This document shows positions 650 through 50,240 of a stretch of DNA of 59,013 nt, piece by piece. Source of the stretch: an uncultured Bacilli bacterium (GTDB taxonomy: Bacteria > Bacillota_I > Bacilli_A > RF39 > UBA660); the NCBI GenBank assembly GCA_947581715.1, contig CANPVK010000001.1:1-59013 (forward strand), given 5' to 3'. The translations under genes were made by a program, and so were the position numbers. A model generated the notes under the pieces. It was not told the origin of the DNA, searched no databases, and saw only the letters and a program-made list of their open reading frames with translations. Position 1 is the first letter of the stretch, and every line of letters starts with the position of its first letter.

Positions 650-3600
650 ATGAATTTTTTTGAACAGAAAATACCGACTAAAAATATTTCTCATATTGGT
701 TTATCTGGCTTAACAGATGAGCTTTTTTGTCGTTATATTCATCAAGTATATTTCGATAATTCTAAATCTATTTTATTAGTTACATCTAGTTTGTTTGAAG
801 CAAATCAACTTTATAATGAGCTTCTGAATTTACAAGAAAATGTTTATCTATTTCCTATGGATGATTTTTTAACTAGTGAAGCCATTGCTGTAAGTCCTGA
901 TTTAAAGGTAAATCGATTGGAAACTCTTCATTCTCTTATCGAAAATAAGCAAAGTATTGTGGTAACCAATCTTATGGGATATTTGAGATTTTTACCTTCT
1001 TGTTCTGTTTATCAAAAAAGCATCCAAACCATTTCTGTCAATCAGGATTATGATCAAATGGAATTGGCCCGTTATTTGAGTCAAATAGGATATGAAAGAG
1101 AATCTATTGTTACGAAAACGGGTGAATATTCTGTTCGTGGATTTATTGTGGATGTTTTTCCAATAGGAGAAGATCATCCTGTTCGTTTTGAATTTTTTGG
1201 CGATACGATTGAATCGATTCATTTCTTTGATGAAGATACCCAAAAATCTATTCATCCTATTCCTTCTATTACGTTATATCCTTATCATGAGTTTTTAATT
1301 GATAGTTCCGAAGAAATACCGGAAATGAAGCAAAAATATTTGAAAAATTATACCAAAGTAGTTTCCATTTTAGATTATTTAAAAGAACCCATTGTTTTTT
1401 ATAAGGATATATCACAGTTAGAAGTAAGTTATCAGAATATCATGCAGGAAGTTTTAGAATATCATCAAGAAAAAGATTGTGATTTTGAAGGGGATTATAT
1501 GTTTGATTTTCATGCTTTAAATCCTCCTTCTTTAAATCATTATTTAACTGTTGATAATCTTCTTTCTGATTCTTCTATTCAGATGTATAATTTAGAAGCA
1601 AAAGAAATTTCTTGTTTTCATGAAAATATTGAAGCTATTAATCATTTTTTACAAGAACAATTATATCTTAATAAGATGATTTTAATTTATTTAAAAGAAA
1701 TTCAAGTGAAAAATTTTACTAAAGTATTAGTTTCTCCTTATGTCATTACGGATGAAGAACATTTAGAAAAAGGAAGAATTAATATTATTTTGAAAACTAT
1801 GAATAAAGGTTTTCTTTATCAAGATTATGTGGTACTTACTGATAAAGAGTTATTTCATTATCAAATTCATCATAAAAAATATAAAACAAAATTTAAATAT
1901 ACTTCTAAGATTAAAGATTTAAATAAATTAGAAATTGGAGATTATGTTGTTCATGCAGTTAATGGAATCGGAATTTATCAAGGAATTAAAACTTTAACTT
2001 ATGGAAATCTTATCAAAGATTATATTGAGATTCATTACGCAGAAAATGACAAATTATATATTCCCGTTGAAAAAATTGATTTGATTAGTAAGTATTCTGG
2101 AAATGAAGGAGTTGTTCCTAAAATTAATAAATTAGGTGGCTCTGATTGGAATAAGGTAAAAGCTAGAGTTAAAAGTAAGATTCATGATATTGCTGATCAG
2201 TTATTACATCTTTATGCGGAAAGAGAAATGAAAGAAGGGTTTGCTTTTTCTAAAGATTCTGTTTTACAACAACAATTTGAAAATGCTTTTGAATATACGG
2301 AAACCAAAGATCAATTAATTGCAGCTAACCAAATTAAAGAAGAAATGGAATCGAATCATCCCATGGATCGTCTTTTATGTGGTGATGTTGGTTATGGGAA
2401 GACAGAAGTCGCTTTTCGTGCCGTATTTAAGGCAGTCATGGATTCTAAACAAGTTTTATACTTGTGTCCAACTACTATCTTATCCAATCAACAATATCAA
2501 AATGCTTTAGTCAGGTTTCGTGATTTTCCGGTTCATATTGGATTATTAAATCGATTCACAACTCCAAAAGAAAAAAATAGAATTTTAGAAGGATTAAAAG
2601 ATGGAACAATGGATTTTGTGATAGGAACGCATCGACTTCTTAGTAATGATATTCAACCAAAAGATTTAGGTTTATTGATTATTGATGAAGAACAAAGATT
2701 TGGTGTTACACATAAAGAAAAAATCAAACAATATAAAAGCAATATTGATGTTCTTACTTTAACTGCTACACCAATTCCTAGAACTTTACAGATGTCTATG
2801 GTTGGTATCCGAAGTCTATCTTTAATTGAAACTCCACCTGTTGATCGTTATCCTGTCCAGACTTATGTAATTGAAGAAAATAAACAAATTATAAAGGATG
2901 CTATATATAAAGAAATATCTAGAAATGGACAAGTATTTTTACTTTATAATCGTGTAGAAAGTATTGAAAGAAAAGTATTAGAAATTCAAAGTTTAGTACC
3001 AGAAGCAAGAATTGTTTATGCTCATGGACAACTTTCTAAAGAGGAATTAGAGAGCAGAATGGATGCTTTTATTCATCAAGAATATGATGTTTTGATCTGT
3101 ACTACGATTATTGAAACTGGTATTGATATTCCTAATGTAAATACTTTAATTATTTTAGATGCTGATCGATTTGGTTTAAGTCAGTTATATCAAATTCGTG
3201 GAAGAGTAGGACGTAGTAATAAAATTGCTTATGCTTATTTTATGTATCATCCTTCTAAGATTCTAACAGAATCTGCTGTAAAAAGGTTAAATGCCATTAA
3301 AGATTTTACAGAACTTGGTAGTGGTTTTTCAATTGCTACTAGAGACTTATCTATTCGTGGAGCAGGAGATATCTTAGGAAGTGAACAGGCTGGATTTATT
3401 GATAATGTTGGAATTGATTTATATTTAAAAATGTTACAGGATGAAATTAGTCGCTTAAAAGGAATAGAAGTAAAAGAAGATACATTAGTGAATGAAAAAC
3501 CTCTTTTAAATGTTTCTACTCATATTTCTAATAATTATACAGAAGATGAAAATTTAAAAATTTCTATTCATAAAGAGATTAATACGATTGATTCTTTTGC

Positions 3601-3943
3601 TAAATTACAGGAAGTAAAATCAGATTTGGAGGATCGTTTTGGTACATTAGATGAAAGTGTCATTATTTATATGTATCAAGAATGGTTTGAAAAAATGGCT
3701 AAAGAATTAGAAATCGAAAAAGTAAATCTTACTAGAAATTCTTTAGAATTGGTTTTTAGCAAAGAAATTACGAAGAAAATTGATGGAGAAAAATTATTTA
3801 CGGATGCTTTCCACATTACTCCCATGTTTCGCTTTAAAATGGTGGCAGATCAACTTATTCTTATTTTAGATACCATTCAGTTAGAAAAGCATTATGTTTA
3901 TTATTTAGTGGAATTACTTCAAAAAATAGCGTTAAAAAAATAG
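650..3943 (+). CDS. mfd: transcription-repair coupling factor Mfd
   Basis: 1097 aa with superfamily-2 helicase motifs GDVGYGKTEVA, IIDEEQRFG and TATPIPRT, a CarD-like KIGDYVVH region and a C-terminal TRG-like region. Conserved pth-mfd synteny. Confidence 0.92.
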   Translation: MNFFEQKIPTKNISHIGLSGLTDELFCRYIHQVYFDNSKSILLVTSSLFEANQLYNELLNLQENVYLFPMDDFLTSEAIAVSPDLKVNRLETLHSLIENKQSIVVTNLMGYLRFLPSCSVYQKSIQTISVNQDYDQMELARYLSQIGYERESIVTKTGEYSVRGFIVDVFPIGEDHPVRFEFFGDTIESIHFFDEDTQKSIHPIPSITLYPYHEFLIDSSEEIPEMKQKYLKNYTKVVSILDYLKEPIVFYKDISQLEVSYQNIMQEVLEYHQEKDCDFEGDYMFDFHALNPPSLNHYLTVDNLLSDSSIQMYNLEAKEISCFHENIEAINHFLQEQLYLNKMILIYLKEIQVKNFTKVLVSPYVITDEEHLEKGRINIILKTMNKGFLYQDYVVLTDKELFHYQIHHKKYKTKFKYTSKIKDLNKLEIGDYVVHAVNGIGIYQGIKTLTYGNLIKDYIEIHYAENDKLYIPVEKIDLISKYSGNEGVVPKINKLGGSDWNKVKARVKSKIHDIADQLLHLYAEREMKEGFAFSKDSVLQQQFENAFEYTETKDQLIAANQIKEEMESNHPMDRLLCGDVGYGKTEVAFRAVFKAVMDSKQVLYLCPTTILSNQQYQNALVRFRDFPVHIGLLNRFTTPKEKNRILEGLKDGTMDFVIGTHRLLSNDIQPKDLGLLIIDEEQRFGVTHKEKIKQYKSNIDVLTLTATPIPRTLQMSMVGIRSLSLIETPPVDRYPVQTYVIEENKQIIKDAIYKEISRNGQVFLLYNRVESIERKVLEIQSLVPEARIVYAHGQLSKEELESRMDAFIHQEYDVLICTTIIETGIDIPNVNTLIILDADRFGLSQLYQIRGRVGRSNKIAYAYFMYHPSKILTESAVKRLNAIKDFTELGSGFSIATRDLSIRGAGDILGSEQAGFIDNVGIDLYLKMLQDEISRLKGIEVKEDTLVNEKPLLNVSTHISNNYTEDENLKISIHKEINTIDSFAKLQEVKSDLEDRFGTLDESVIIYMYQEWFEKMAKELEIEKVNLTRNSLELVFSKEITKKIDGEKLFTDAFHITPMFRFKMVADQLILILDTIQLEKHYVYYLVELLQKIALKK

Positions 3944-6276: not shown

Positions 6277-6792
6277 ATGAAAGCAACAGGAGTTGTTAGA
6301 AGAATTGACAATTTAGGTCGTATCGTTATTCCCAAAGAAATTCGTAAAACTTTTAGAATTATGGAAGGAGATAGTTTAGAATTTTTTGTAGATGAGAGTG
6401 GAATTATTTTAAGAAAATATGATATTTTAGATCATTTATTAGAAGTATCTAAAAATTTAGTGGATTTAGTCTATCAAATTTATGGAAAGCATATCTTTAT
6501 TACAGATAAGGAAAAAGTGATTGCTTCTTCTAAAGAATATCGTAATATCTATCTAAACCAAAATTTATCTAGTAATATTAAAGATAAAATAGAAAAAAGA
6601 GAAGAATATCTTACTTCCGAAAAATTTTCTATTATTGTAGGTCAAACTGTTTTTTCTTGTTTTTTGGTTCCTATTTTAGTAGATAGTGATGTATTAGGAA
6701 GTGTTGTTTTAGTACAGGATGATATTACGAAAGAAGATCAAAAACTTATTAGACTGATTGCTTCTGTTTTTATTAAAAATATTGAATCATAA
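6277..6792 (+). CDS. spoVT: stage V sporulation protein T (AbrB-family regulator)
   Basis: N-terminal SpoVT/AbrB motif MKATGVVRRIDNLGRIVIPKEIRKTF followed by a C-terminal domain of about 120 aa. Its position downstream of mfd matches Bacillus. Confidence 0.85.
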   Translation: MKATGVVRRIDNLGRIVIPKEIRKTFRIMEGDSLEFFVDESGIILRKYDILDHLLEVSKNLVDLVYQIYGKHIFITDKEKVIASSKEYRNIYLNQNLSSNIKDKIEKREEYLTSEKFSIIVGQTVFSCFLVPILVDSDVLGSVVLVQDDITKEDQKLIRLIASVFIKNIES

Positions 6793-6816: not shown

Positions 6817-7025
6817 CATAAAAGTTTTGAAGGAAAGAGTTATTGGAAATCTATTTCAGAGAGTCTCGTTTGGTGGAAGGAGATATAGAGGAACAATAAT
6901 AAATGGTTCTGGAGCTAATAAATATTTATTCGTTTCTCGCGTTAAGAGTTTAAGTGTATAAGTGTTTACTTATAAAATAAGGTGGTACCGCGATTATTCG
7001 TCCTTATAGGAATAATCGTTTTTTT
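6817..7025 (+). promoter_or_regulatory. T-box leader (tRNA-sensing riboswitch), probable Met specifier
   Basis: Conserved T-box sequence GGTGGTACCGCG at 6981-6992 overlaps the 5' arm of a terminator. AGAGA- and GGTGGAA-like stem I elements lie upstream. An AUG triplet at 6903-6905 lies in the stem I region. A Met-tRNA ligase gene is downstream. Confidence 0.8.
6991..7025 (+). terminator. T-box terminator hairpin
   Basis: cgattattc (6991-6999) pairs with gaataatcg (7010-7018), followed by ttttttt. Confidence 0.75.
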
Positions 7026-24257: not shown

Positions 24258-24325
24258 TCTGAAAATAAATATTTTCATCACTATGTGTGACTTGAACAAA
24301 GTGAAAGGAATGAGTGGTTAAGATG
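24244..24325 (+). repeat. 82-bp conserved leader, copy 1 (copy 2 at 41745..41826)
   Basis: Manual alignment gives 79 of 82 identical positions. Ends in the ATG of the downstream gene. Contains the hairpin tgaaaat-aaat-attttca. Confidence 0.9.
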
Positions 24326-24892
24326 CAATACAATGTGAATTTATCTGATATTTTATATACTAATAGAATAATCAAAAATATATCAAAAAATAAACTTGCT
24401 GAATTAGTTGGTATTAGTAGAAATGAAATTACTAGAATTGAATCAGGCGAAAGAAAGAATCCCAATTTAAAAACACTCATTAAAATATGTGAAGTTCTTG
24501 ATATTGATTTCATAAATCTATTAGTTTCTATTAACTATCTAGATAAAAAATATTTAATTAAAAATCAATTTGAAAAATTAAATAATTATCATGTTTCTGT
24601 AAGAAAAATTTATAAAAAAGATTTTTTGATAAAAGCAAAAACAAAAGAAGATGCTGAAAAAAGTGCTATAAATCTTATGAATGAAAATGATATCATTGAT
24701 GATGATTTCATAGAAAAATTTGATATTGTAGTATTAGAATCTGATGGAAATGATGATAAAAAAGAAGAAGAAAATATTCCAGAATATTCTTCTAAAGATG
24801 ATGATTTTTTTTCAGAAGGTTGCCCAAAATTTGGCTGTGAACATTGTGAATATTATTGTCCAATTTGTAATGAATGTACCTATGATGAATAG
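24323..24892 (+). CDS. XRE-family HTH regulator fused to a DpnD/PcfM-like domain and a Cys-rich tail
   Basis: HTH_3 pattern ISKNKLAELVGISRNEITRIESGERK. Central segment YHVSVRKIYKKDFLIKAKTKEDAEKSAINLM. C-terminus CPKFGCEHCEYYCPICNEC. The ATG at 24323 is preferred because it is the conserved end of the 82-bp repeat. Confidence 0.7.
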   Translation: MQYNVNLSDILYTNRIIKNISKNKLAELVGISRNEITRIESGERKNPNLKTLIKICEVLDIDFINLLVSINYLDKKYLIKNQFEKLNNYHVSVRKIYKKDFLIKAKTKEDAEKSAINLMNENDIIDDDFIEKFDIVVLESDGNDDKKEEENIPEYSSKDDDFFSEGCPKFGCEHCEYYCPICNECTYDE

Positions 24893-45370: not shown

Positions 45371-45408
45371 CCTCCAATCAATTTAAAAAAATTTAGATTG
45401 ATTGGAGG
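45371..45408 (+). promoter_or_regulatory. SD-sequestering hairpin upstream of the sigma-like gene
   Basis: cctccaatcaat (45371-45382) pairs perfectly with attgattggagg (45397-45408). The 3' arm contains the GGAGG located 8 nt before the ATG at 45417. Confidence 0.5.
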
Positions 45409-45416
45409 AAAGAAAA

Positions 45417-45893
45417 ATGGAATATTATCCAAAAAGAAGAAAAGATTTTAATAATCCTTATACCTTAAGTTATTGTGAAAAGAGTAATACTTATATTATT
45501 TCGTTTAAAGATAGTAGAGGAATTCAACAAGTCATAGAAGTTAATAAACAAATTTATCAAGCATTTAATAAATTTGAATTAGAAGATATTTCTCAAATGA
45601 ATAAATTTGATAGACATATTGAGCATTCTGAGTTGTTTGAAGAATCTCTGCATAAAAGAGCTGTGGACAAGCCATTATCAGTAGAGGAAATAGTAGAAAG
45701 TAAAATTAATAACGAAAAATTAAGAGAAGCAATACAAGAACTACCTGAAATCCAAAAAAATAGATTAAAAAAATATTATTTTGATAATATGAGTTTTGAG
45801 GAAATTGCTAAAGAAGAACATTGTACCAAAAGAGCAGTAAAATTTAGTGTTGATCTTGCTTTAGAAAAAATTTCAAAAAAATTTCAAAAATAG
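45417..45893 (+). CDS. sigma-70 region 4-type HTH regulator (conjugative-element sigma-like factor)
   Basis: C-terminal LPEIQKNRLKKYYFDNMSFEEIAKEEHCTKRAVKFSVDLALEKI is a sigma70_r4-type HTH. The ATG at 45417 is preferred to the TTG at 45402. Confidence 0.6.
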   Translation: MEYYPKRRKDFNNPYTLSYCEKSNTYIISFKDSRGIQQVIEVNKQIYQAFNKFELEDISQMNKFDRHIEHSELFEESLHKRAVDKPLSVEEIVESKINNEKLREAIQELPEIQKNRLKKYYFDNMSFEEIAKEEHCTKRAVKFSVDLALEKISKKFQK

Positions 45894-45918
45894 ACTACAC
45901 ATTTTGACTTTTAGTGAG

Positions 45919-45955
45919 GAAACAAGTGAAAGGGGATAAACCTTTCACTTGTTTC
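45919..45955 (+). terminator. 15-bp perfect stem-loop after the sigma-like gene (no T-run)
   Basis: gaaacaagtgaaagg, loop ggataaa, cctttcacttgtttc. Confidence 0.4.
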
Positions 45956-46112
45956 AATTTGAAATAAGTAAGTTCTTTGAAATTGTATATATCATTCATC
46001 AAATACATTCCTATTAAGAATAGCACATTAACAAGTACGCTTGTCGATAAATACTTGGTTATAAAATTAGGTAACACCTAATCTGCGATTACTCTTAATA
46101 GAATTAAAGATA

Positions 46113-46215
46113 CTCCTGTCTAGCCACAGACTCAAGCAATGGGGACAGCCCGGAGAGATCCTCGGGGAGGTGGAATTCCTGTGAGATTGAATCGTACTCA
46201 ATCGTTTGATGAAAT
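46113..46215. other. GC-rich island in an ORF-less spacer (candidate structured RNA or gene relic)
   Basis: The sequence cctgtctagccacagactcaagcaatggggacagcccggagagatcctcggggaggtggaattcctgtgag stands out from the AT-rich surroundings. No ORF with a start codon and RBS on either strand. Confidence 0.3.
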
Positions 46216-46262
46216 CCTAAGCTGAAGGTATTAAGAAAAATATCAGTAATGAACTAAAATTT

Positions 46263-46286
46263 AGCTATAGTTGAGAAACTATAGCT
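46263..46286 (+). promoter_or_regulatory. 10-bp perfect hairpin immediately upstream of the mazF-like RBS
   Basis: agctatagtt, loop gaga, aactatagct. The RBS aaagga follows about 10 nt later. Confidence 0.4.
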
Positions 46287-46309
46287 TACTTAAGAAAGGA
46301 ATAAAATAA

Positions 46310-46678
46310 ATGTTTTGTGAAATATATCGTGGGCAAATTTACTATGCAAATCTTGATCCTATCATAGGAAGTGAACAAAGTGGATTTCGTCCTGTTTTAA
46401 TTCTACAAAATGACATAGGAAATCTATATAGTGAGACGATTTTAGTGGCACCTATTACTAGTAGGGTAGCTACTAAAAATAAATTGCCAACACATGTTAA
46501 AATTCATGCCTTTGATAAATTACAAAAAGATTCTATTATCTTAACAGAGCATATTCGTTCTATCGATAAACAAAGGTTAGAAATTTATTTAGGAAAACTA
46601 AATGAAATAGAAATGAAAAAAGTAGATGCTGCAATTGAAGTAGCATTTGGATTGAGGAGGAGTGTTTATGAGAAATAA
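46310..46678 (+). CDS. PemK/MazF-family endoribonuclease toxin
   Basis: YRGQIYYANLDPIIGSEQSGFRPVLILQND...ILVAPITSR...PTHV...DSIILTEHIRSIDKQRL is the classical MazF/PemK fold signature. Confidence 0.85.
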   Translation: MFCEIYRGQIYYANLDPIIGSEQSGFRPVLILQNDIGNLYSETILVAPITSRVATKNKLPTHVKIHAFDKLQKDSIILTEHIRSIDKQRLEIYLGKLNEIEMKKVDAAIEVAFGLRRSVYEK

Positions 46679-46895
46679 ACTTTTTACTGTAGATATTGAA
46701 TTAATTAATAGTAATCAAATAATCGTAAATGCAAAAAGCGAAAGGGAAGCAAAAGAAAAAGTTATGGATATTATTCAAAATAGTAATTTTTTAGAAAATA
46801 ATATTATATCTTCTAATCCGTATAAAGTGAATTTAGTTACAAGAAGACTTAAGAAAAAAAATAATTCAGTTTTTTTGTCGGGAATAAAAAAATAG
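46668..46895 (+). CDS. DpnD/PcfM-like small protein (candidate cognate partner of the toxin)
   Basis: The ATG at 46668 lies 7 nt after gaggagg and overlaps the toxin stop by 11 nt. FTVDIELINSNQIIVNAKSEREAKEKVMDIIQNS resembles the DpnD/PcfM motif and the middle of ORF 24323..24892. Confidence 0.55.
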   Translation: MRNKLFTVDIELINSNQIIVNAKSEREAKEKVMDIIQNSNFLENNIISSNPYKVNLVTRRLKKKNNSVFLSGIKK

Positions 46896-46925
46896 TAGCG
46901 TTCATAGGGTAAAGTGGGAGGAAAT

Positions 46926-47057
46926 ATGGTAATTAATAAAAAAGAAGAACATGTAATATGTGTTTTTGATGAAGAAGGAATTACTTTGGAACAAAAAATA
47001 TTAGAAGCATTTGATTACTATTTAAATGCAAATCTGCAAAATTCAAAAGATATGTGA
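46926..47057 (+). CDS. small ORF (43 aa), hypothetical
   Basis: My own translation: MVINKKEEHVICVFDEEGITLEQKILEAFDYYLNANLQNSKDM. RBS gggagg is upstream. The stop is embedded in a terminator hairpin. Confidence 0.35.
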   Translation: MVINKKEEHVICVFDEEGITLEQKILEAFDYYLNANLQNSKDM

Positions 47058-47076
47058 TTTTGCAGATTCGTTTTTA
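47031..47076 (+). terminator. rho-independent terminator upstream of the recombinase genes
   Basis: aatctgcaaaat (47031-47042) pairs with attttgcagatt (47057-47068), followed by cgtttttatt. Confidence 0.7.
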
Positions 47077-47119
47077 TTAAAAAAATAATATATCATTTGC
47101 CTTGTAAGGAGGATTTTTT

Positions 47120-48709
47120 ATGATAGATTGTTTAAATGATAAAAAACATCATGCTGCTGCTTATGGCAGATTATCGAAGGAAAATTTATTAAAAGGAAAT
47201 GCTAGCGAAAGTATTTTAAATCAAAAAGCCTTGATACAAGAATATGCTAATAAAAATGGTATAGAAATATATGATTACTATATGGATGATGGTTTTACTG
47301 GAAGTAATTTTGATAGACCAGAATTTAAGAGAATGTTAAGGGATATTGAGAATGGTGTAATTGATATTGTTATTACAAAGGATATATCTAGATTAGGGAG
47401 AGATTTTATTGGAACTTCTGATTATATTTATAATTACTTTCCAGAGCATAAAGTTAGGTATATCTCAATCTTAGAAAATTACGATTCTTTAAAGCCAAAT
47501 GGTGTGGAAGATATACTTCCATATCATACTTTATTAAATCATTCTTATTTAAAAGATACATCTAAAAAAATTAAGAGTGTTAGGCATGAAAAAATGGCAA
47601 GAGGTCTTTATGTTGGTAGTAGTGTTCCATATGGCTATAAAAGATCAGAAGAAGATAATCGCAAATTTGTAATAGATGAGTATGCTGCTAATATTGTTAA
47701 GAGAATTTTTAAAATGAAGTATGAAGGAATAACTAATGTTATGATTGCTCGTACTTTGACTAATGAAGGAGTTTTACCACCTAGTGTATATTCTAATAAA
47801 AATATAGAAGTTACATATACTACTAATCTTTGGAAACCTTCTACTATCGCAAATATTCTAGGAAATGAAGTTTATATAGGTACATTAACTCAAGGCAAGT
47901 ATCAAAGAATTAATACACGTTCTAAAAGATGTTTTTTATTGCCAAAAGATCAATGGATTATTGTAAAAAACAATCATGAACCTATTATTGATGAAGAATT
48001 ATTTCATCATATTAATTCTCAAAAAACTCATAATGAACAAATTCGAATGGTAAAATATGATTATTTACTAAAAGGGTTAGTAGTTTGTGCTGATTGTGGA
48101 AAAACGATGTTAGTTCGACCATGTAAAGGAAAGCCTATATATTGTTGTAAGACTTATGCTAGATATAGAAATAATGTATGTAGCATGCATTACTTTAGGG
48201 AAGATAAATTAAATAAGATTGTTTTAAAGGAAGTAAGAAATGTTCTTAAGTCATTTCATCAAGAAAAATCATTGAGTGAAAAATATGATAATCAGAAAAA
48301 AAAGCAAACTCTTATTCCTAATTATGAACTTGATTTAAAGCAAAATAAAAGTAGGCTAAAATTAATAGAAAAAGCTCTCAGCGATTTATATATTGATAGA
48401 ACTTCTGAAATTATTACAATAGATGAATTTCAAAAGTTAAAAAATGATTTGACAAAAGAAAAGGAGAAATTAATTCTGAGAATTTCAGATTTAGAATTAA
48501 TGATTGGAAAGGGAAAAATAAAATTAGGTTCTGGTAATGAAAAGGAAAAAGTTATTTCAGATTTTTTAAAGATGAAAAATCCAGATAAATTTGTATTAAA
48601 TCAGTTAATCAAGAGAATAGAAATTGATGAGCAAAAAAATGTAAAAATTTACTTTAACTTTAATATTAATGGAGTGGCTTATGAAAAAGAAAAAAGTATT
48701 GTATGCTAG
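47120..48709 (+). CDS. large serine recombinase 1
   Basis: N-terminal resolvase catalytic domain (AAAYGRLSKE, catalytic Ser; DDGFTGSNFDRPEF; VITKDISRLGRD), recombinase domain, Zn-ribbon (CADCG...CC...C) and C-terminal coiled coil. 529 aa. Confidence 0.9.
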   Translation: MIDCLNDKKHHAAAYGRLSKENLLKGNASESILNQKALIQEYANKNGIEIYDYYMDDGFTGSNFDRPEFKRMLRDIENGVIDIVITKDISRLGRDFIGTSDYIYNYFPEHKVRYISILENYDSLKPNGVEDILPYHTLLNHSYLKDTSKKIKSVRHEKMARGLYVGSSVPYGYKRSEEDNRKFVIDEYAANIVKRIFKMKYEGITNVMIARTLTNEGVLPPSVYSNKNIEVTYTTNLWKPSTIANILGNEVYIGTLTQGKYQRINTRSKRCFLLPKDQWIIVKNNHEPIIDEELFHHINSQKTHNEQIRMVKYDYLLKGLVVCADCGKTMLVRPCKGKPIYCCKTYARYRNNVCSMHYFREDKLNKIVLKEVRNVLKSFHQEKSLSEKYDNQKKKQTLIPNYELDLKQNKSRLKLIEKALSDLYIDRTSEIITIDEFQKLKNDLTKEKEKLILRISDLELMIGKGKIKLGSGNEKEKVISDFLKMKNPDKFVLNQLIKRIEIDEQKNVKIYFNFNINGVAYEKEKSIVC

Positions 48710-50240
48710 ATTATCGTTGGAAGATTGGGAAAAACAGAATGAATACTCTGAAAGTATTGAAAATCAAATAGACTTAATAAAAGCATATTGTCAAAAGGAA
48801 AACATTATTTTATCTGATACCTATATAGATGATGGTTATTCTGGTGGTAATTTTGATAGACCTGGTTTTTTAAGATTAAAACAAGATATTGAGGATGGAT
48901 TAATTGATACTGTAATAACAAAAGATTTTTCTAGATTAGGGCGAAATTTTTTAGAATTATCTCATTATATATTAGAGTTTTTTCCAGATCATGATATTCG
49001 CTATATCGCTATTAATGATAATTATGATAGTGCAAGTGATAATTCTGCCTTAGATGATTTTTATATTGGTATTAATGCAATTAGAAATCAAAAATATATT
49101 CAAGATATTTCTAGAAAGGTTAAAAGTGTAAAAGAGTTAAAATCTAAGCAGAAAAATTTTTTAAGTTTTACAGCTCCATATGGCTATAAGATTATTAAAA
49201 AAGATGGCGTAAGAACTTTAGAAATTGACGAAGAAGCTGCAAAAATTGTTCGGAGAATTTTTCAATCTATTGCAGATGGAAAGTCTAGAAAACAGGTTGC
49301 ACAGGAATTAAATCAAGAAAATGTTGAACCTCCAATATTACATTTGAAAATGACTCAAAGTAGTAAGGTAAATTATCATTTTGATTGGTATCCATCGGGA
49401 ATATTTAGAATTATTAGGGACATTGTTTATACAGGAAATCTTTTCTATAGAAAATCTATTAAAGAAAACTGTTTAGAAAAGAAAAGGAAACTTATTAGAA
49501 CATCAGATAGACAAATTATTTTTGATACACATCCGGCAATTATTGATATGGAATTGTTTGAAAAAGCAAATAAAACTTTGAAAACGATGAATTCGAGAAG
49601 AGTGTATAACTATCATAGTATTTTTGAAGATTTAATTTATTGTGGAGAATGTGGCAATTTAATGAAAATAAGTGGTCGTGTTAGAGAAAATGGTGCATTT
49701 CAATATCGGTTTATTTGTAATAAGACTATTAATAGGAAAAGTTGTGACAATAGATCAATTGCTGATTCGAAGTTAAAAGAAATTGTTTCTTATACTTTAA
49801 AAAAAATTATTACTGAGTTTATTCAAGAAGAAAACATTATTGAACAATCGGTAAAAAAAATTCATAATCAAAAAGATTATGAAATAAAAATCGACAAACT
49901 ACAAAAAGATATTCAAGTTTTGGATGCTCAAGTTAGTGATTTATATTTAAAGAAGACAAATGGACAAGTTACTTTAGTAGAATTTTTAAAAAACAAAAAT
50001 GATATTGAAGAAAAAAAGAATTCGATGACAGAACAGTTAAAAGCTTTAGAATTAGGAAAGAAGAATGTAATTCAAAGAGATGTTATTTTAGAAAAATATA
50101 GAGACTTTATTGATAATGATGAATTCTTAGAAAATTCAGTACATGATTTAATAGAAAAAATATTTATATATAAGGATAACACTATAAAAATTAATTTTAA
50201 AATTCAAAAATTAGATTCTGAAATCATTCACTTATATTAG
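48681..50240 (+). CDS. large serine recombinase 2
   Basis: VLYARLSLED, DDGYSGGNFDRPGF, VITKDFSRLGRN, a Zn-ribbon CGECG...C...C and a coiled coil. The ATG at 48681 follows ggag and overlaps the end of recombinase 1. Confidence 0.9.
   Translation: MKKKKVLYARLSLEDWEKQNEYSESIENQIDLIKAYCQKENIILSDTYIDDGYSGGNFDRPGFLRLKQDIEDGLIDTVITKDFSRLGRNFLELSHYILEFFPDHDIRYIAINDNYDSASDNSALDDFYIGINAIRNQKYIQDISRKVKSVKELKSKQKNFLSFTAPYGYKIIKKDGVRTLEIDEEAAKIVRRIFQSIADGKSRKQVAQELNQENVEPPILHLKMTQSSKVNYHFDWYPSGIFRIIRDIVYTGNLFYRKSIKENCLEKKRKLIRTSDRQIIFDTHPAIIDMELFEKANKTLKTMNSRRVYNYHSIFEDLIYCGECGNLMKISGRVRENGAFQYRFICNKTINRKSCDNRSIADSKLKEIVSYTLKKIITEFIQEENIIEQSVKKIHNQKDYEIKIDKLQKDIQVLDAQVSDLYLKKTNGQVTLVEFLKNKNDIEEKKNSMTEQLKALELGKKNVIQRDVILEKYRDFIDNDEFLENSVHDLIEKIFIYKDNTIKINFKIQKLDSEIIHLY

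Follow-up and report, generated by a model that had tools for sequence, protein, structure and literature searches.

The window, i.e., the whole stretch of DNA analysed here (59,013 nucleotides; positions 1-59,013 of contig CANPVK010000001.1, assembly GCA_947581715.1), derives from an uncultured Bacilli bacterium of the gut. It carries a conjugative element in which mazF, a gene for a MazF/PemK endoribonuclease toxin, is followed by two small open reading frames (ORFs) and by two recombinase genes at the element end (Table 1). An earlier note on this DNA had described mazF as a toxin gene with no antitoxin gene before it, overlapped at its 3' end by an ORF for a 75-aa protein, termed W in the following, and had proposed a toxin-antitoxin module of reversed order in which W neutralises the toxin. 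The ORFs of mazF, W and the 43-aa protein were recovered at the positions given there, together with the terminator-like hairpin and U-run after the 43-aa ORF. The junction of mazF and W is likewise as described: the ATG of W at 46668 lies ahead of the mazF stop codon at 46676-46678, and a strong Shine-Dalgarno (SD) sequence, GAGGAGG, is present at the end of mazF (GAGGAGGAG at 46654-46662). The overlap of 11 nucleotides (nt) and the SD inside mazF show directly that W is translationally coupled to mazF.

The mazF gene and its surroundings

A degenerate toxin, which the earlier note had named as a finding that would speak against its proposal, is not what the locus holds. The mazF gene is intact, with a full-length match of its product to Pfam family PemK_toxin (PF02452; E 6e-32, 110.5 bits with the cut-off at 23.1, covering positions 2-108 of the 109 in the profile) and with the catalytic residues kept. 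The protein is collinear from end to end with the EndoA/PemK structures 4hke, 4mdx and 1ne8 (E ~1e-31). The residues that we take to be catalytic, following the assignment in B. subtilis MazF, are an arginine (GFRPV) and a threonine (APITSR), and both are conserved; the counterparts in 4hke are GVRPV and AAITAQ. The window mazF is the sole PemK_toxin match in the 1.26-Mb, 94%-complete genome. Its product is up to 60% identical to those of the relatives L001-L003, and L003 has a ribbon-helix-helix (RHH) antitoxin upstream. Counts of UACAU sites within the module were uninformative.

The claim that no antitoxin gene lies upstream also stood, as the 94%-complete genome contains no MazE-type gene and no second MazF elsewhere. 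Neither an AbrB-type nor an RHH gene, as in the canonical mazEF/pemIK layout, is located directly upstream of the window mazF. No EndoAI-type antitoxin was found in this genome, where the best match (E 0.18) falls inside a 796-aa frame, and the single match to PF04014 (AbrB/MazE domain) is a 193-aa open frame, too long for a MazE-type antitoxin. This frame lies outside the element, with the match at 6295-6420, and a T-box leader (RF00230, 101.6 bits) is situated just 3' of it at 6818-7008; the context is ordinary chromosomal.

The 416 nt between the sigma-like gene and mazF had been described as free of any ORF with a start codon and ribosome-binding site. No credible ORF is indeed present in 45894-46309, where the reading frames reach 28-60 aa only and are unconserved, but the spacer is not featureless: it carries a structured RNA, the pemK motif of Rfam.

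Table 1. Features of the mazF locus and of the related distant gene in the window
Feature	Position	Strand	Basis
XRE-type helix-turn-helix (HTH) protein with weakly DpnD/PcfM-like residues 88-129	24314..24892	+	HTH_3, E 1e-12
Sigma-70 region-4 protein, 163 aa, counterpart of Tn916 Orf7/Sig7	45402..45893	+	Pfam Sigma70_r4_2, E 4e-9
Perfect 15-bp hairpin, terminator- or insulator-like	45919..45955	+	fold -24.9 kcal/mol, z -6.0
pemK RNA (RF02913) and extra 3' hairpin P4	46104..46184, 46185..46203	+	cmscan, covariation
10-bp hairpin just 5' of the mazF ribosome-binding site	46263..46286	+	fold z -3.6
mazF/pemK endoribonuclease toxin gene, 122 aa	46310..46678	+	Pfam and PDB matches
75-aa basic protein W (pI 10.1), candidate antitoxin	46668..46895	+	11-nt overlap, SD within mazF
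43-aa acidic ORF, pI 4.4, charge -5.4	46926..47057	+	conserved small gene before serine recombinase
Terminator-like hairpin (13-15 bp) with U-run, reaching into the 3' end of the 43-aa ORF	47023..47077	+	-16.4 kcal/mol, z -3.6
Two overlapping large serine recombinase genes, element end	47120..48709, 48669..50240	+	first: Pfam Resolvase, Recombinase, Zn_ribbon_recom

The spacer RNA and canT

The pemK RNA of the window was identified by cmscan against Rfam as a full-length match (61.7 bits; gathering score 34.8; E 1e-8), and it is present in one copy in the genome. Comparison of 25 sibling leaders reveals compensatory changes in 18 of 23 base pairs, which supports the three hairpins of the Rfam model and an additional covarying hairpin, P4, that is absent from this model. 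Among 151 sampled genomes of the same class, 12 carry the RNA, at 16 loci, and at every one of these it is located 3' of a sigma-70 region-4 gene and 5' of genes for serine or tyrosine recombinases. Of the 15 loci other than that of the window, 4 have mazF next after the RNA and 11 do not. One of the sampled loci is a Tn916-type element.

The canT RNA was demonstrated experimentally to be a cis-acting processive antiterminator in Tn916; the mutation canT(S3) changes ATA to TGC at nt 283 after orf8, and the canT deletion covers nt 229-390 (bioRxiv 10.1101/2024.09.05.611371). In pCF10/Tn916 (L157, 1299-1399), the pemK motif starts exactly 283 nt past the orf8 stop. By its coordinates, the pemK RNA motif RF02913 is canT of Tn916: it begins at the very nucleotide of the canT(S3) site, within the canT deletion. 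The terms "pemK" and "Rfam" are absent from the canT preprint (bioRxiv 10.1101/2024.09.05.611371), and the link between the two was found neither there nor among papers mentioning pemK RNA. Rfam, in which RF02913 has been catalogued since 2017, lists it solely as cis-regulatory; the equation re-labels it as a processive antiterminator, and explains why so many mazF genes on mobile elements of Firmicutes seem to lack anything upstream.

The likeness to Tn916 extends beyond the RNA. The sigma-like protein of the window is 46-53% identical to the product of the gene 5' of the pemK RNA in sibling elements, and the order of sigma gene and RNA is common to pCF10/Tn916, where orf7 and orf8 together form a split sigma factor that drives the operon (bioRxiv 10.64898/2026.10.01.756105). 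The sigma-like gene is the first gene of a regulatory/excision operon. As in Tn916, the RNA of the window gives a full-length match to the model and lies between a sigma-like gene and recombination genes; it differs in that it precedes mazF and serine recombinases, while that of Tn916 precedes xis-int. Antitermination by the window RNA is predicted from the full-length covariance match and the identical synteny. Since the spacer RNA is evidently canT, it would be the leader of the excision operon rather than a substitute for an antitoxin.

The RNA lies immediately 5' of many mazF genes with no protein antitoxin between, and ToxN, whose antitoxin is an RNA, has a MazF/Kid-like fold; the RNA itself could be envisaged, in place of W, as an antitoxin of type III kind with MazF as its direct target. 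We consider this very improbable and have rejected it, as the same RNA is canT in Tn916, an element devoid of mazF, as the RNA mostly occurs without mazF (the 11 of 15 sampled loci above), and as it is a single copy, with no ToxIN-like repeat array beside the window mazF.

A family of small proteins beside mazF

With the toxin as query, most of the loci retrieved were canonical or distant MazF loci, and the sibling elements escaped detection; 80 sibling loci were fetched with the sigma-like protein as query (L-numbers designate siblings and other loci alike). In nearly every sibling locus that carries mazF, an ORF of 59-90 aa abuts or overlaps the mazF start, with the window as the exception: 206 nt lie between the start of the RNA and that of mazF there, compared with about 415-450 nt in the siblings. 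The partners upstream of mazF are of three types, A, B and C. Type D is located downstream, overlapping the mazF stop, at ~25 loci with a type-A gene on the upstream side as well, and one locus combines C upstream with an A-like gene downstream. The window is the only case found in which a downstream family copy stands alone; the type-A partner, like the EndoAI- and MazE-type genes, is absent from its 94%-complete genome.

Two loci depart from these layouts. L155 (ENA ERZ21549403, tig00014571), a long-read contig with an A-mazF-D cassette, has intact mazF and D genes but an A gene (1937-2071) called at 44 aa where 66 aa would be usual; either an indel error of the long reads or a natural variant with the downstream partner only, like the window, would account for this. 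The sibling locus L075 holds at 3560-3667 a 35-aa C-terminal remnant of type B, lacks the 5' box of the RNA, keeps mazF intact and looks like a deletion variant.

The types are related to each other. The type-C model matches type D at E-values of 1e-11 to 4e-6 and type B at 1e-10 to 3e-6, and hhalign probabilities are 97% for C with B, 95% for C with D and 75-86% for A with the rest, against 0.1-0.2% for reversed controls. A scan of the 80 loci in six frames (2609 ORFs) places all family matches just 3' of the leader, on the coding strand. The family corresponds to 174 clusters in a collection of 5.8e9 proteins, all annotated as hypothetical and none with a Pfam domain, and NCBIfam has no name for any member.

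Sequence searches with W itself retrieved only W and a compositionally biased repeat protein of 3485 aa, so that no close homologue is present in the 5.8e9 proteins (word-indexed search) or in 1.84e9 representatives (full phmmer). The homology surfaced solely via synteny-guided profiles: the model of the upstream type-C partners matches W with 24.7 bits (E 4e-8), and hhalign of W against the family built without W gives a probability of 90%, compared with 3% for reversed W. W is nearer to type C, which stands alone upstream of mazF in L064, L112, L122 and L129/130. An AlphaFold2 (AF2) model of W from 18 sequences has a beta-beta-alpha-beta topology (strands at residues 4-11, 15-22 and 55-61, helix at 25-38) with a mean confidence score, pLDDT, of 66. 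On the strength of the profile comparisons, W is a member of an unannotated family of basic 60-70-aa proteins with a predicted beta-beta-alpha-beta fold.

The resemblance of W to the DpnD/PcfM-like domain, pointed out in the earlier note, escapes Pfam and is recovered by comparison of profiles. W has no match to PF14207 at E-values up to 10, and 3 of 10 family members give sub-threshold matches (E 0.012-0.085, 13.3-16 bits against a gathering score of 25 bits). A PF14207 profile was built from 12/15 genuine domains in sister genomes, and hhalign of the family against it gives probabilities of 94.5-94.8% (E 5e-8) over 40 N-terminal columns, compared with 0.1% for reversed controls. The family of W thus appears to be DpnD/PcfM-like in a real but remote way, short of membership in the Pfam sense. 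Both share an N-terminal beta-beta-alpha unit of 40 residues with the signature V-x-A-x-S/N-x-x-E-A, and both are typical of conjugative elements; the C-terminal half of the family, with EIVLD..DF.GVEF, is unmatched in PF14207. We know of no function for DpnD/PcfM proteins, and the likeness therefore explains nothing mechanistically. A literature search on DpnD/PcfM, PF14207 and orphan MazF on conjugative transposons found nothing relevant.

The second copy of the domain that had been claimed for the XRE-type protein is detectable, weakly, at residues 88-129 (19.8-22.8 bits with the family model, 12.6 bits with PF14207), and this protein is the only PF14207 match in the genome. With a DNA-binding domain joined to a putative toxin-binding domain, it would have the architecture of a classical antitoxin, and it could act in trans on MazF. 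We also note that its C-terminus is Cys-rich (CPKFGCEHCEYYCPICNEC).

These relatives bear on whether the window has simply lost its antitoxin gene, an upstream partner of type A, B or C, and now relies on neutralisation in trans, e.g. by the XRE protein, or carries a decaying toxin. The siblings with mazF have an upstream partner and the window alone does not; 125 nt lie between the Rfam match and mazF in the window, as many as separate the RNA from the upstream partner in the relatives, so that mazF occupies exactly the place expected of that partner; and nothing else in the genome but the XRE protein holds a further copy of the domain. Such a loss is nevertheless improbable as an account of the whole locus. 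The window MazF has no sign of decay, three other samples show the identical arrangement, nothing that looks like the remains of an upstream gene can be seen, and the family paralogue W is kept in a coupled position. W is, moreover, nearer to type C, the type that suffices alone upstream in the loci named above. The earlier note had itself allowed for a deleted MazE-like gene: the relatives do have an upstream gene, but it encodes a protein of the same small-protein superfamily as W and not a MazE. The relatives are usually partner-first and often have a second paralogue after mazF. With the upstream position as the rule among relatives, "reversed order" describes the window element and not the system.

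The phylogeny of the toxins places the window MazF between 36 partner-linked MazFs and a group of eight composed of RHH-canonical and RNA-only lineages, with the splits supported by 95/88 and 93/82. The tree is unrooted, and the window MazF and all partner-linked MazFs form one side of the split supported by 93/82. When canonical MazEF is taken as outgroup, the window MazF is sister to all partner-linked MazFs.

Linkage, function and the excision operon

Co-occurrence of MazF with DpnD/PcfM-like ORFs, which the earlier note had suggested surveying, was counted over 73 loci, the window included, in which the sequence runs on for at least 1.4 kb past the sigma gene. A family gene is present at 44 and absent from 2 of the loci with mazF, and abuts or overlaps mazF in the 44; among the loci lacking mazF it is present at 13 and absent from 14. 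The toxin is almost never without the small gene and the small gene is often without the toxin, an asymmetry expected of a toxin and its antidote. Toxin and partner are adjacent, co-oriented and presumably co-transcribed, and their linkage is conserved among the relatives, as in type II systems. Independent gene calls include the orders sigma, 64 aa, PemK, Xis, Tyr-Int and sigma, 66 aa, PemK, 63 aa, Xis, Tyr-Int, which are B-mazF and A-mazF-D cassettes, respectively; the first of these orders occurs in more than 1300 of the blocks listed from the contig collection. Since the cassettes also precede Xis and a tyrosine integrase, the cassette moves between recombinase backbones.

The reading that we prefer, with a probability of roughly 0.5, is that the locus is a permuted toxin-partner cassette in a canT-controlled excision operon and that W is the coupled, downstream-only representative of the partner family. 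The element would be a Tn916-superfamily conjugative element with the cassette inside its excision operon. Transcription would start from the promoter of the sigma-like gene, as suggested by Sig7-8 and Psig7 of Tn916, and the nascent canT-type RNA would render RNA polymerase resistant to terminators. The polymerase would then traverse mazF, W, the 43-aa gene and both serine recombinase genes and, after excision, the conjugation genes. W would be made by translational coupling to mazF and may bind and neutralise the MazF dimer. The window element would have kept the downstream paralogue only.

With toxin and partner made only upon activation and excision, the cassette likely penalises loss of the excised circle or arrests the donor cell, a role that is suggested by analogy with mosAT of SXT. 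This toxin-antitoxin pair was reportedly described by Wozniak and Waldor in 2009 as co-regulated with excision. Like mosAT, the pair of the window would act when the element is extrachromosomal and can be lost; the protein families are unrelated, and SetCD regulates mosAT where a sigma factor and an antiterminator RNA would act here.

A broader proposal, which we hold tentatively, is that the DpnD/PcfM-like basic proteins constitute an unrecognised family of MazF antitoxins whose genes may stand before the toxin, after it or on both sides, with the pair tied into a canT-antiterminated excision operon and so armed only while the element is excised. If true, the DpnD/PcfM superfamily, common on conjugative elements, would gain a first function, i.e. 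nuclease inhibition, a widespread family of 174 "hypothetical" clusters would gain a function as well, and MazF would prove able to work with a partner that is basic and unlike MazE, with a gene free in position. Comparison with MazEF/PemIK systems (Kis-Kid, EndoA-EndoAI) indicates that a bona fide toxin and a small, translationally coupled neighbour are common to both. The window partner differs in being basic, in its predicted beta-beta-alpha-beta fold, in having no recognisable DNA-binding domain and in following the toxin, and the cassette, which lacks a separate promoter, lies inside the antiterminated operon of an integrative and conjugative element. The toxin-first order and the overlapping reading frames, with the putative antitoxin second, recall higBA, hicAB and mqsRA, whose antitoxins, in contrast, have HTH domains and a fixed place, whereas the order varies within the family described here.

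Several observations weigh against an antidote role of W and its family. Family genes occur at 13 of the 27 loci lacking mazF, and may thus belong to the backbone and serve some different purpose. The loci are related, and the independent contrasts number just 5 pairs (p 0.5), for which a sign test is powerless. The MazF lineages L005-7, L008-11 and L040 follow the pemK RNA with no family gene, and what lies downstream of them varies (uncharacterised 172-aa and 124-aa proteins, DUF6870, an AAA_15 ATPase); a MazF behind canT can therefore apparently do without this partner. MazE-type antitoxins neutralise through acidic segments, while every protein of the family, W among them, is basic (pI 9-10). 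W is known from one clone only, as the same mazF-W arrangement in three other samples comes from three short metagenome contigs that are 100% identical and offer no polymorphism for a test of selection. The AF2 model is of moderate confidence, and a second run with 136 sequences scored lower (pLDDT 56) and was not used.

A rival reading is that there is no antitoxin at all. MazF would then be harmless by virtue of a silent sigma-dependent promoter, terminators and read-through dependent on canT, and would act only in the rare activated cells, as a growth-arrest or host-killing factor; the W family would consist of small nucleic-acid or RNA-polymerase binders from the regulatory module of the element that are neighbours by chance. 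Activation of Tn916 on its own kills the host (bioRxiv 10.64898/2026.10.01.756105), and an unneutralised toxin in the operon could therefore be tolerated. The identity of the pemK RNA with canT, the RNAs with no mazF behind them (11 of 15 sampled outside the window), the several MazF lineages lacking a family partner, the family genes at the 13 mazF-less loci and the basic character of the proteins are all in keeping with this. A Foldseek search of the W model against the PDB found nothing significant; its best hits, all below significance, were YkzG/epsilon (E 0.18, probability 0.95) and T7 Gp2, small proteins that bind RNA polymerase. The abutting family gene at 44 of 46 mazF loci, even though the reverse, a family gene without mazF, is common, the start/stop overlaps on both sides of mazF that indicate coupled translation, and the joint transfer of the cassette genes between backbones with tyrosine and with serine recombinases all favour a partner of the toxin, and we regard a locus with no antitoxin as unlikely, if well worth keeping in view.

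The last candidate for an antidote, in preference to W, is the acidic 43-aa ORF. Its acidity is like that of MazE-type toxin-binding segments, and mazF is present at all 6 loci that carry the 43-aa family. These 6 loci, however, are of one serine-recombinase type, the family is missing from the other ~40 mazF loci, and W intervenes between this ORF and mazF, to which it is not coupled. Small ORFs in the same position also precede the serine recombinases of L038 (TnpW) and L037, which lack mazF. An antitoxin role of the 43-aa protein is therefore quite improbable. Its homologues of 41-44 aa, in the same place in L043, L070, L083, L112 and L122, share the consensus ..VICVYDE....I.EKILEAFE.YLK..LQN, and no Pfam family matches the ORF; TnpW is found at this position in L038 (PF14202, E 6e-12), and the 43-aa ORF resembles it by position and pattern only.

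Two further groups of loci are of note. In the G+C-richer Clostridia elements L005-L007, L013, L008-L011, L029 and L040, the canT RNA is followed directly by mazF; the spacing of RNA and mazF in L005 and L008 is 206 nt, as in the window, with no W-family or conserved gene downstream. In the sibling elements L067, L071, L079, L093, L109, L114 and L115, one or two W-family genes follow canT and mazF is absent; such genes are either orphan antitoxin-like genes or evidence for a toxin-independent role.

The hairpins of the spacer complete the locus. One lies just after the sigma-like gene (Table 1). At the equivalent of the hairpin just 5' of the mazF ribosome-binding site, the relatives (L106 and L055, compared by eye) have a hairpin with a U-run, i.e. 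an intrinsic terminator, while the window has the hairpin without the U-run.

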